Positions 804-58,908 of a stretch of DNA of 64,000 bases are shown in pieces (positions within the stretch are counted from its first letter, which is position 1; each line of letters begins with the position of its first letter). The notes under the pieces are model-generated. The model was not told the origin of the DNA and ran no database searches. It worked only from the letters and a program-made list of their open reading frames with translations. Location: positions 434,434,001-434,498,000 of the forward strand of contig OZ024740.1 of NCBI GenBank assembly GCA_964016885.1, read 5' to 3'. A program made the translations under genes and the position numbers. This DNA is from Eledone cirrhosa (lineage: Eukaryota).

Positions 804-1160
804 TACAATATTAAATAAATGGAAACTATATTTATAAAACCATATTTATTTCATTATATATATTTCGGGGATATCATATTAACAATATGCTATGCCTTCC
901 TCAGACAAAATACAATATAAACAGTTTTATAGAATCTATTTATCTATAAAACTGTTTATATTGTATTTTGTCTGAGGAAGGCATAGCATATTGTTAATAT
1001 GATATCCCCGAAATATATATAATGAAATAAATATGGTTTTATAAATATAGTTTCCATTTATTTAATATTGTAAATATACTCCAAATATTTGTCGAGTGCT
1101 TTTATATCAGTTATAAATATTTACTAGTTGTAACCCAACAATTTTAAATATAACTTTCCA
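804..1160 (+). mobile_element. Fold-back element 1: 130-bp perfect inverted repeat + unique tail, inserted in (TA)n; likely Penelope-type terminus
   Basis: 804-933 is the exact reverse complement of 943-1072, with a 9-nt spacer; (TA)n on both flanks; contains a hammerhead core. Confidence 0.75.
961..1025 (+). ncRNA. Hammerhead-ribozyme-like motif (mirror copy on the minus strand ~851-915)
   Basis: CTGAGGA at 972-978, long stem II (CATATT/AATATG), GAAA at 1010-1013, palindromic ATATAT stem III; stem I weak. Confidence 0.6.
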
Positions 1161-1432
1161 TATATATATATATATATATATATATATGTATATATATATA
1201 TATATATATATACATACATACATACATATATACATACACACATACATACACATACACTCACACATATACACACACATACATTAATAACAATAATAATAAT
1301 AATAATAGCAATAATAATAATAACGACAACAACAATAATAATATACATATTCATATATATATACACACACACGCACGCACATAAGCATATCTACACACAC
1401 ACACACACACACACACACACACACGATAGCAA

Positions 1433-4400
1433 CTAACAGTGCTGCGATCGAATGTGGCTTTTTAGCCCAGCCAATGATCTAAAATGTCTTGCACAGAGTC
1501 GGCAACCAAAACATTCACTGGGAATAGTCGGCTGTGGTTGGAGTTTGTGTACTTTTGCATGTCGCTTGAGCCCTCCTGCTGATTTACATTCTCTACCACA
1601 TGTTTGGCAAGCATGATGGGTAGCATCTCCAACTGCAGCCTGGTAGTCAACCACTGGTCTTACTTTATGACTGCGAAGATGACTTTCGAGTCCAGCTTTG
1701 CTTAGGCAGAGTCTCGCACAGACGCTGCATGTCAGCACCATAGGAGGACCCTCGCCGTCTGGAAGTGCAACAGCAATGCCCTTCCTCACGTCCCGCTTTA
1801 CATTCTCGTGTGCGATTCGAGATGCCTCAAAGGCAACTTTTCCCTCATATACAGTCTTTCTCCATTTATTACGATCAGCAGCAATATTTTCCCATGTATC
1901 AGTAGAGATGTTAGCGTCTTTCAGAGAGGCTTTCAAGGAATCCTTATACCTCTTTTTTGGTTTATGTGGCGGTCGTTTTCCTTTAACCAACTCTCCATAG
2001 AAGAGTTGTTTTGGTATTCTAGAATCCTTTATCCTGGCAAGGTGACCACTCCAACGGAGTCGTTGCTTAAGCACAAGAGCTTCTATACTGTCACACATAG
2101 AGCTTTCCAAAATCTCGACATCACTGATGTGGTCCCTCCAGTGAACGCCATGGATCCGTCTGAGACACATCTGATGGAAACGCTCCAATTGCTTAAGGTG
2201 GCGTCGATATGTCACCCAGGTCTCGCAGGCATAAAGAAGACAAGAGAGTACACATGCCCTGTACACCCTTACCTTTGTCCTCCTGCATATGTCTCGCCGA
2301 CCCCAGAGTCGCCTTTCTAGCTTTCCAAAAGCATCACTTGCTTTCGTAATCCTAAGTGAGATTTCACTGTCAAGGTTGCCGTATCGATTGACAGTGCTTC
2401 CCAGGTAGACAAACTGATCAACCACTCCAAGTCGTTTGCCATACACATAGATGTTTGGTTCAGTGTACTGCTTACTAGGGGTAGGTTGGTACATGACGAC
2501 GGTTTTCTTGAGACTGACAGTCAAACCCAGGGCAGTGCAAGCGTCAGAAAATGCATTCAAAATGTGCTGCATATCACTCTCTGTGTGCGCTACAAGATCG
2601 CAATCATCTGCATACAAGAGGTCTCTTATGACTGATGTAAATACTTTTGTCTTCGCAGCAAAGCGCCTGATGTTAAATATACTGCCTGAGGTTCGATATT
2701 GGATGTAAACACCATGCTCGCAATTCCTGAATGCAATACAGAAAACCATTGCAAAGTATATGGCAAACAGGGTCAGTGCTGGAATATCCCCCTGTTTCAC
2801 TCCATTTTTTACTGAGATAGGCTCCGACATGTTACCTCCGACATTAACCCAAGCCTTCATGTCGTCATGGAAAGACCTAACTAAAGCAAGGAACTTATCA
2901 GGGCAACCAAGTTTCTGGAGAACCTTCCATAATGCATCTCTGTTGACAGTGTCGAAAGCCTTTGTCAGATCGACAAAAACCTGATACAGATCCAAGCCCT
3001 GTTCAATGCACTTCTCCTGGAGCTGTCTAGCTGAGAAGATCATATCAGTAGTGCCGCGTCCAGCACGAAAACCAGATTGACTTTCAGGAAGGACACAATC
3101 TGCAATGTGTGTCAGCAGACGGTCCAGAAGCACCCTACATAAAACTTTCCCTACGACAGAAAGCAATGATATACCTATGTAGTTCCCACAATCATTCCTG
3201 TTACCCTTTCCCTTGTACAAGACCACCATTACTGCATCTCTCCAGTCCTCAGGCACGGATTCATTAGCCCATATCCTTCCAAACAGAGAGTGAAGATGTT
3301 GCAGGAGTCTCTCACCACCATATTGTAGGAGCTCAGCATGTATGCCATCCATACCTGGAGATCTTCCACTGTTCAGCTTCGAAATAGCCACTGCAACCTC
3401 CACAAGCGTCGGAGGTTCTGCGAGAGCTACTTTCACAGGACTTTCCGGAATGAGATTGAGGAAATCTTCACTGACGACAGACGGCTGATTCAAAAGATCA
3501 TCAAAGTGCTCTCGCCACCTTCGTAGAATTCCCTGTGAGTCACGAAGAAGTTCTTTGCCATCCCTGCTGCGAATCGGTGTCACCAGAGAAGAAGACGGTC
3601 CATAAACCTCACGCAAGAGACTGTACAACAGCTTTGTGTTATTGCAATCAGACGCAGTTTGTATCTCACCAGCCTTCTCACTCCACCACTGATCCTTCAT
3701 CTGAGAAAGACTCCGCCTAACACGTGATTTTACATCCCTGAGCTCCTCATGCAACGTATTCCTCTCCTGTGGTTTTGCCGTCAAGTAGCGTGACAGAGCA
3801 CGCCTCTTATCAGCCAACAAGTCTTCTATATGTACATCATTCTCATTAAACCAGTCCTGATGTTTTCTCTGCACCAATCCCAGAACACGTCTGCCTACAT
3901 CATAAACCGACTTTTTAAGGGTCGGCCAATCCTCACCAAGATCTGCAGCCTGCATCTCTTCTTCCAATGTCCTCTTCACATTTTTATCCTTAAGACGAGC
4001 AGCATTCAATCTTTTGGACAGGGTAACACCTGGAGCCCGGATTTTACGTTTGGTGATTAGATTCACCTTTGCGCGTACCAGGCGGTGGTCCGTCCAGCAC
4101 TCAGCTCCACGAAGAACACGAACACACTGCACATCCTGTCTGTCACGCATCCTGACTAGGACGTAGTCTAAAAGATGCCATTCCTTAGATGCAGGATGCA
4201 TCCATGTGGTCTTGAATTTGTTCTTTTGTTGGAACATGGTGTTGGTAACACACAGATCCAGCTCCTCACACATCTGCAGCAAGAGCATACCATTGCTGTT
4301 ACACTTTCCCACCCCATGCCTTCCGATTACGTTCCATGTGTTAAAATCCCTACCCACTCTAGCATTAAAGTCACCAAGCACGATGACTTTGTCTGCCTGA

Positions 4401-58422: not shown

Positions 58423-58582
58423 ATCATCATTTCATTTTACGTCCGCTTTTCCCTGCTTGCAAGGGTGGAACGGGAATTGATGCTCGCTTGATTTCTACAG
58501 CTGGATGCCCTTCCTAACACCAACCTCATTTACAGTGAGTGCTGGGTGCTTTTTTGCCGTGGCACCTACACGACCACTTTGC
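58423..58582 (-). mobile_element. SINE-1 3' fragment
   Basis: Reverse-complement match to 61380-61540. Confidence 0.85.
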
Positions 58583-58594
58583 ATATATATATAT

Positions 58595-58908
58595 TAATTC
58601 AAAATATTAACAAAATAGATATTCTTGTGATCAATTATATTTTATTATACATATTTCAGAGGTACTGAGTTAAGTTCAACAGTACGTCCTCATCAGATAA
58701 AATAAAATGATACATGACATACCCTGACATAATAGATGGTACCTCTGAAATATGTATAATAAAATATAATTGATCACAAGAATATCTATTTTGTTAATAT
58801 TTTGAATTATTATTAATAACACTGGAAACCCTTGTTACTGTTGAGTTCTTCCAATCTATTGTAAAACTCATTCTTTGATGTATTCATTGAACCTTGTTTA
58901 ACTTTTAA
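58595..58908. mobile_element. Fold-back element 4: 71-bp perfect IR (58595-58665/58739-58809) with a minus-strand hammerhead
   Basis: Arms are exact reverse complements; (TA)n flanks. Confidence 0.75.
58640..58708 (-). ncRNA. Hammerhead-ribozyme-like motif
   Basis: Minus strand reads TTTTATTTTAT-CTGATGA-GGACGTACTG..CAGTACCTCT-GAAA-TATGTA-TAATAAAA. Confidence 0.65.

Follow-up and report, generated by a model that had tools for sequence, protein, structure and literature searches.

Fold-back elements with hammerhead ribozymes in (TA)n of Eledone cirrhosa: candidate insertion stubs of Hydra-clade Penelope-like elements and a stem-loop in their tails

Four fold-back elements in a 64-kb window

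We analyzed a stretch of 64,000 nucleotides from Eledone cirrhosa (the window; positions 434,434,001 to 434,498,000 of the forward strand of contig OZ024740.1, assembly GCA_964016885.1), and in particular four fold-back elements located in it at 804-1160 (E1), 13029-13216 (E2), 56352-56866 (E3) and 58595-58908 (E4). The window is repeat-rich animal DNA, with open reading frames (ORFs) of long interspersed nuclear elements (LINEs), long microsatellites and two broken Penelope-like elements (PLEs); its short interspersed nuclear elements and microsatellites are reminiscent of an octopus genome. E1-E4 are themselves very probably PLE insertion stubs.

In each of the four elements, both arms have the same 3' end, in the same sense, read outward from the center, and one arm is 55-100 nt longer than the other. 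All four are head-to-head pairs of 5'-truncated copies with a tail on one arm. The original prediction, made from the window's letters, had proposed a shared plan in which an inverted repeat, a hammerhead ribozyme and a unique tail follow one another. The inverted repeats were found at all four places; the order was not, as the arms are the same 3' end pointing outward twice. Arm-to-arm identity was 130 of 130 bp in E1 (with a 9-nt loop), about 70 of 70 in E4, 117 of 125 aligned columns in E3, and 49 of 61 in E2. Runs of TA adjoin seven of the eight element ends, the exception being the left end of E3, which borders non-TA DNA; the predicted (TA)n setting thus held on both sides of E1, E2 and E4 and on the right side only of E3. 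Any target-site duplications of E1-E4 would be masked by (TA)n, which also dominated the output of an inverted-repeat finder on the window.

E1 consists of a short, tail-less arm (804..933, minus strand) with a full hammerhead (core 904-898, predicted cut after 855), a 9-nt junction (934..942) joining the 5' ends of the two arms, and a long arm on the plus strand. The long arm contains a common part (943..1072, with the short 3' end at about 1072), a hammerhead (core 972-978, GAAA 1010-1013, predicted cut after 1021) and a tail (1073..1159) reaching the long 3' end before (TA)n. Both arms start 29 nt upstream of the ribozyme core. In E2, the long arm with the tail (13029..13148, minus) begins within helix II and is therefore without CUGAUGA, and the short arm (13149..13216, plus; core 13154-13160, GAAA 13178-13181) starts 5 nt upstream of the core. 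E4 has a short arm with a full hammerhead (58595..58712, minus; core 58696-58690, predicted cut after 58646) that starts about 15 nt upstream of the core, a junction filler of about 25 nt whose source was not found (58713..58737), and a long arm (58738..58908, plus; tail 58810-58908) that again begins within helix II. E3 starts about 250 nt upstream of the core, in coding DNA. Its inverted arm (56352..56475, minus) carries the C-terminal 27 codons of an endonuclease of Hydra type (56473-56393) and about 40 nt of 3' untranslated region (UTR), and a 4-nt junction loop (56476..56479) separates it from the long arm (56480..56865, plus), which carries the ORF end (stop 56560-56562), the 3' UTR, a hammerhead (plus; core 56734-56740, GAAA 56752-56755, predicted cut after 56763) and the tail. 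E1 thus has the ribozyme in each arm, E2 and E4 have a complete one in the tail-less arm alone, and in E3 it lies beyond the repeat. There was no coding DNA in E1, E2 or E4, and no reverse transcriptase (RT) or linker DNA in any of the four. There is a distant relationship between E1 and E4 that spans the ribozyme and the 50 nt after it (score 40 versus 22 ± 2.9; 0 of 300 shuffles), so that the predicted lack of mutual similarity applies to the other pairs, which had no significant similarity in the same comparison.

We scanned the window for type I hammerheads with a strict topology (core, helix I of at least 5 bp and helix III of at least 3 bp). There were four matches, all within E1-E4 (E1 on both strands, E3 on the plus strand and E4 on the minus strand), compared to a mean of 0.03 and a maximum of 1 in 100 block-wise dinucleotide shuffles. 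The hammerheads claimed for E1, E3 and E4 were therefore recovered. E2 has the core, but it failed the strict scan because a single change in the one complete copy disrupts helix III; the other arm keeps a paired helix III and is missing the first half of the core. In the Rfam search that had been suggested as a check, no hammerhead model attained its cut-off on ribozymes this small: the sole hammerhead match was a weak, sub-threshold one to Hammerhead_3 on E2 (23.8 bits, cut-off 48.5), and targeted scans of E1, E3 and E4 gave none. Among the 150 of 314 Rfam matches listed for the whole window, mostly microRNA models on microsatellites, there was no hammerhead. Two same-orientation ribozymes were not present in any of the four elements, and there were no tandem hammerhead units, each element being single in the window and repeated only in inverted form. 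In a read-through RNA, the arms would pair across the ribozyme. Self-cleavage with the palindromic helix III of these ribozymes would need a second copy or the help of a protein. A lone CTGATGA core with a short helix-like stretch and no GAAA lies between TA runs at 59483-59500 and is possibly a decayed stub.

A stem-loop in the tails and placement of the elements

As predicted, the heptamer GAGT(G/A/T)CT occurs near the long ends, at 60 (E1), 27 (E2), 37 (E3) and 59 nt (E4) before them. It was rejected as a stand-alone signal because its count in the window, 14 compared to 18.2 expected, is not above chance. In E1-E3, it makes up the 3' side of a stem-loop with a bulge, ACTC-N12-GAGT followed by RCT. 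The stem-loop of E1 (ACTC-N12-GAGTGCT; 1078..1100, plus) begins about 6 nt past the short end (z -0.97 when folded alone), and the variants listed for the E1 family in this stretch affect its loop, its bulge and the T run. In E2 (ACTC-N12-GAGTACT; 13056..13078, minus), the distance from the predicted cut to the stem-loop is 39 nt, as it is in the main groups of relatives described below, and in E3 (ACTC-N12-GAGTGCT; 56806..56828, plus) it is 42 nt. E3 is the only element with an unusually stable tail hairpin (z -2.72, 0 of 200 shuffles). The E4 form (ACCC-N11-GAGTTCT; 58828..58849, plus) is degenerate, and the fold score of z -2.32 in the E4 region refers to the short arm with its full hammerhead. 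Rfam searches with these hairpins returned mostly microRNA models.

Relatives were sought in unrelated metagenome contigs with a Hydra-style hammerhead pattern only, the stem-loop not being required. This gave at least 120 loci, and all figures for these relatives are among the matches listed. There were 135 arms, of which 122 had 110 nt of downstream sequence. The pattern GCTC-[stem-loop]-bulge-GAGCACT was present in 41 of the 122, from 9 of 18 clusters, compared to 6 of 284 background windows. In the 15 distinct stem-loops, 96.5% of cells pair and there are nine double changes; none of 500 shuffles was as high. We counted covariation in the metagenome set alone because MAFFT placed the window hairpins out of register with the longer metagenome hairpins; a swap of A-U for G-C at the base of the stem was seen only between the window and its relatives. 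Because the sequences are related, the covariation is support for a stem-loop and not proof of one. Two main clusters account for 84 of the loci and are by eye near the Hydra-2_Amil consensus. In them, the 3' ends of the arms were bimodal, at +26..38 after the predicted cut in 67 of 102 and at +98..105 in 35 of 102, and the stem-loop starts at +39/40, between the two 3' ends.

Two loci, L041 and L078, have a ribozyme and stem-loop followed by a whole Hydra ORF, and in seven loci the end of the ORF precedes the ribozyme. The tail is therefore the 5' UTR of the unit. In L041 (2288-2387, minus), the stem-loop occurs twice in one 5' UTR before an intact Hydra ORF, and the Hydra-1_Ajap consensus also has two. 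In L078 (2706-3140), what comes immediately after the full Hydra ORF is not a 3' UTR but another ORF piece (residues about 175-319). Separately, 22 viral-contig matches to the ribozyme plus motif were judged to be due to chance: none had a helix I of at least 5 bp or a TA run, and a model built only from the metagenome hairpins (R1) found nothing in them at E up to 1.

The placement of E3 comes from its protein remnant. Both arms open with the last 27 codons of an ORF that bears an N..E....CxH pattern and no CCHH, and this pattern is shown for Hydra endonucleases in the supplement of Craig et al. (2021, PMC8557442). We built a Hydra endonuclease profile from 120 homologs of a metagenome ORF, none selected on E3. 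Against 1955 six-frame peptides of the window, the E3 frame ranked first (E 7e-4) and the mirror arm second; the E3 frame had E 1e-4 in a pairwise comparison, and its single match among protein representatives was a Hydra-type C-terminus. The 46 full-length profile members have the diagnostic marks taken from PMC8557442: DK[TS] in 45, CxCx5C in 45, the terminal CxH in 46, RWK in 35 and ADKG in none. An earlier peptide profile was dropped as circular (its members had been picked on E-x4-C-x-H, and four of nine were junk), and Pfam had no match on any PLE peptide of the window. E3 is thus likely to belong in or next to the Hydra clade. The stem-loop and the TA target, together with the style of the ribozyme, lead us to infer the same clade for E1, E2 and E4; the ribozymes of E2 and E3 are Hydra-like in a by-eye comparison with the table of PMC8557442. 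The claim that several distinct Penelope families target TA microsatellites in this DNA stands, with the families now placed in or next to the Hydra clade by the E3 remnant, the hairpins (E1-E3) and the ribozyme style (E2 and E3).

The Hydra clade is a clade of endonuclease-bearing PLEs that includes Hydra-1_Obim and Hydra-2_Amil; almost all of its elements are in (TA)n and they carry ribozymes (PMC8557442). The window elements share with it the (TA)n target, a type I hammerhead close to the 3' end whose helix III is short and palindromic, the C-terminal CxH (E3) and an inverted 5'-truncated copy, reported there for Penelope-13_HM. They differ in that only stubs of 190-510 bp are present here, and none of E1-E4 appears by eye to be Hydra-1_Obim itself. 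Visual inspection of the six Hydra consensus sequences newly given in PMC8557442 showed the stem-loop in four, with two of these occurrences at the 5' end, and loosely in a fifth, but not in Hydra-1_Obim. The words 'hairpin', 'stem-loop' and 'palindrom' do not occur in the main text of that paper. We found no description of the stem-loop in the literature, in a search to which Repbase, Dfam, subscription papers and the supplementary figures of PMC11167929 did not belong. The architecture, target and ribozyme of the stubs are already known, and the stem-loop is apparently an undescribed cis element.

Origin of the fold-back pairs

Head-to-head arrangements were found at 28 of the metagenome loci, or 26 pairs after removal of two duplicates. 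There were 21 pairs of one long and one short arm, one short-short pair, no long-long pair and four undecidable ones, so that 21 of the 22 decidable pairs follow the one-long-one-short rule. Direct repeats of at least 8 nt flank 15 of 18 pairs, compared to 17 of 152 mismatched controls, and the target duplications around whole pairs are 10-20 nt. The 5' starts were no more than 14 nt upstream of the core in 60 of 79 mapped arms, a proportion biased by the need of the scan for an intact ribozyme, and seven of the 26 pairs had the same -12/-12 start position. In one head-to-head locus (L069, 1-710), one arm starts deep in the ORF, at about residue 303; in the other arm, 94 nt precede the ribozyme.

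Variation within a family was followed for E1 alone, by aligning contigs and reads of four sequencing runs to it. The E1 sequence was present in 10 listed runs, including two with other organism labels (shares 0.38 and 0.29), and there was no RNA dataset among the listed runs that carry it. We recovered 4134 matching contigs in run X1 and 33,071 matching reads in run X11; summed contig depth was not taken as copy number. Fifteen of 21 arm-to-arm joints were listed; all 15 are different, and most occur in one contig each. Read depth in run X1 was lowest across the junction of E1 itself. In runs X1, X4 and X11, reads continue upstream of 933 with other sequence, so the fold-back point of E1 is not the start of the family. 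There are two 3' ends, into (TA)n behind 1078 and, as a loose end in runs X4 and X5, behind 1157. None of the 40 substitutions listed (of 66) is at a catalytic base. They fall at the free core position 7, in loops or in flanks, or repair helix mismatches (1009 and 1024; 986 with 1002 if linked). E1 is thus neither single-copy nor poorly conserved in its core, either of which had been named as counting against the original prediction. Because the joints vary, the family continues upstream and no listed variant strikes the core, these data favor insertion by-products over a fixed mini-element. At nine of the 15 listed joints, both arms start at 1020-1049 (with mirror-arm coordinates converted as 1876-p), at or just past the predicted cut. 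Such starts may reflect cleaved templates, and the metagenome clusters, which start about 10 nt before the core, uncleaved ones; subfamilies with a different helix II or mapping bias could also cause this clustering.

We consider it probable that E1-E4 are single, heavily 5'-truncated insertions of Hydra-clade PLEs, and that the enzyme starts on either side of a conserved stem-loop. The element RNA would have the order ribozyme, 35-50 nt, stem-loop, 5' UTR, ORF, 3' UTR, ribozyme, as shown for L041 and L078 and presumed in this genome. The GIY-YIG endonuclease would cut both strands of AT-rich DNA, here (TA)n, as it does in vitro for a Poseidon element. The RT, probably bound as a dimer at the stem-loop, would prime one strand just 5' of the stem-loop to give the short end, and would prime the other cut strand 25-60 nt past it to give the long end; the two ends themselves are observed. 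Both complementary DNAs would stop early, near the ribozyme or slightly into the ORF, and their ends would then be joined at points that, as observed, vary. The fold-back would be a by-product of insertion and the ribozyme an inheritance from the parent. The 5' starts near the core in the relatives would be consistent with copying that runs from the first stem-loop of the RNA to its 5' end.

That the stem-loop is the start signal for the RT is a tentative proposal that could well be wrong. We hold a little less firmly still to its general form, in which Hydra-clade RNAs across animal phyla would carry the signal RCUC-[stem-loop]-2-nt bulge-GAGY-RCU where the 5' UTR or tail begins, and an RT dimer would start once on each side of it to make one long and one short arm. 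Several observations weigh against these interpretations. The tails here are 55-100 nt, compared to 30-40 nt in the literature, and the short arm of E3 does not reach a short end but stops 130 nt before the ribozyme. Folded alone, the E1, E2 and E4 hairpins are weak, and that of E4 deviates in both sequence and position. Model R1 ranked the E2 hairpin first in the window (17 bits, E 0.06) and did not find those of E1, E3 and E4 at E up to 10. A paired descriptor had three matches in the window, all in tails and without E4 (shuffle mean 0.86, with 11 of 200 shuffles reaching three), a marginal count from a descriptor written after its window matches had been viewed. The double changes among the 15 related stem-loops are confined to the upper stem, the lower stem being invariant, and two close clusters supply 96 of the 135 metagenome arms. 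No ORF was linked to the E1, E2 or E4 families.

That E1, E2 and E4 have no coding DNA, and that Hydra coding DNA is present in just 15 of the 120 metagenome loci, could also mean that these three elements come from ORF-less masters, similar to short interspersed nuclear elements, that consist of a ribozyme and a stem-loop tail and borrow a Hydra-type enzyme, the fold-back being made at insertion. The clustered 5' starts and the repeated -12/-12 position would suggest a short RNA with a fixed start, and non-autonomous PLE derivatives are known (PMC8557442; bioRxiv 10.64898/2026.07.22.740005). We regard this as unlikely. The same clusters contain ORF-bearing copies (L040, L051 and L110), the clustering of starts is just as compatible with the 5' copy of a full-length RNA, and the requirement for an intact ribozyme biases the starts; moreover, the E1 family extends upstream of the fold-back and E3 begins in its ORF. 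Dedicated fold-back mini-elements resembling retrozymes, copied as whole self-cutting hairpins, had been an option of the original prediction, and the identical arms of E1 with the same start base, the high copy number of its family and the conserved core would suit them. This seems very unlikely as the main explanation, given the low depth across the E1 junction, the differences among all listed joints, the start of E3 in coding DNA, the lack of a same-orientation ribozyme pair and the expected pairing of the arms over the ribozyme in read-through RNA. Least likely of all, and also very improbable, is that snap-back repair at TA runs made the palindromes once the elements had inserted, or that the elements are DNA transposons like miniature inverted-repeat transposable elements (MITEs) with chance ribozyme-like sequence. 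Arrays of (TA)n are prone to hairpin repair and E4 carries a junction filler, but the arms end at two fixed sites internal to the element, the target duplications of the relatives enclose the whole pair, and the repeats meet in the middle and not at the termini.

An inverted truncated copy with a one-sided tail is a published PLE insertion pattern (PMC8557442; PMC3846280), and the origin of PLE inverted repeats and one-sided tails has been named an open problem (PMC8557442). The inverted pseudo-long terminal repeats of Penelope (Arkhipova et al. 2013, PMC3846280) are similar to E1-E4 in their head-to-head arms, palindromic junctions, one-armed tail and target duplications, and differ in having a tail of 31 bp as opposed to 55-100 nt. 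Self-priming on an antisense template is the cause of the inversion proposed there; two priming events are a better fit to the one-long-one-short rule. In Frangieh et al. (2024, PMC11167929), the protein of the green anole Poseidon element PAc was shown in vitro to cut both strands of AT-rich DNA and to extend them; two internal RNA start sites delimit the tail, a dimer is predicted and ribozyme cleavage is dispensable; the two start sites were mapped in that one element only. The likeness lies in the two starts that bound the tail, the AT-rich targets and initiation in a stem-loop. PAc belongs to another clade, and its starts are 111-118 nt inside the ORF at an AC-rich stem-loop, whereas the stem-loop here is in the non-coding 5' UTR, between the two ends. 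Animal non-LTR retrozymes, as portrayed in bioRxiv 10.64898/2026.07.22.740005, are likewise short, non-coding, PLE-derived and equipped with type I hammerheads, but they are defined by tandem head-to-tail ribozyme units, of which there are none here.

The stubs are ordinary PLE debris, and the stem-loop is the useful part. A conserved structure of 23-30 nt between two ends across the clade is a defined target for mutagenesis, and it could serve as a marker for assigning ORF-less stubs, which annotation tools could mistake for MITEs or microRNA precursors, to the Hydra clade. If our proposal is true, the PLE 'tail' and the head-to-head inversion would both come down to one cis signal and a counting rule. 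In that case, the stubs found in such numbers would represent strong-stop-like products copied from the RNA 5' end.

Other Penelope-like fragments and surroundings

Two further hammerhead motifs, at 14490-14526 and 50445-50472, had been predicted in Penelope-linked DNA. Both do lie in such DNA, and both are degenerate and failed the strict scan. The first is in a short PLE 3' fragment between TA runs (14457..14540, plus), the first 39 nt of which match 11435-11471 (minus) at 92%; it has a U3/A8 core, a variant described in PMC4209133, and a 3-bp helix I. The second is a minimal hammerhead with a 2-bp helix I in a 5'-truncated PLE between TA runs (47920..50565, plus), which consists of an RT end, a GIY-YIG domain with CCHH and a long 3' UTR with no tail stem-loop, and is Neptune-like by motif. 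Its RT part was matched by the full-length Hydra profile (E 5.6e-5). The other broken PLE (11435..12987, minus) is 5'-truncated and has a linker, a GIY-YIG domain with CCHH and a 3' UTR; it is also Neptune-like by motif and not Hydra, and it breaks off just before its ribozyme, beside the end of an RTE-type repeat. The Hydra endonuclease profile did not match the endonuclease of either of these two PLEs.

Elsewhere in the window, there are intact-looking long LINE ORFs with endonuclease and RT at 1433-5164, 41057-45246 and 52116-54413 (minus), and RT fragments at 6331-7344 and 8659-10335 with a PHD finger after the RT. Within an 8-kb array of a 36-bp unit (16629-24611), there is a (CTAACC)-like run at 22199-22247. 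Very long (TA)-rich microsatellites (36276-40971, 45760-47918 and 54390-56007; 1.6-4.7 kb) lie beside LINE and PLE ends, and a tandem duplication of about 245 bp with a TA run in each copy is located at a LINE 5' end (45230-45760).

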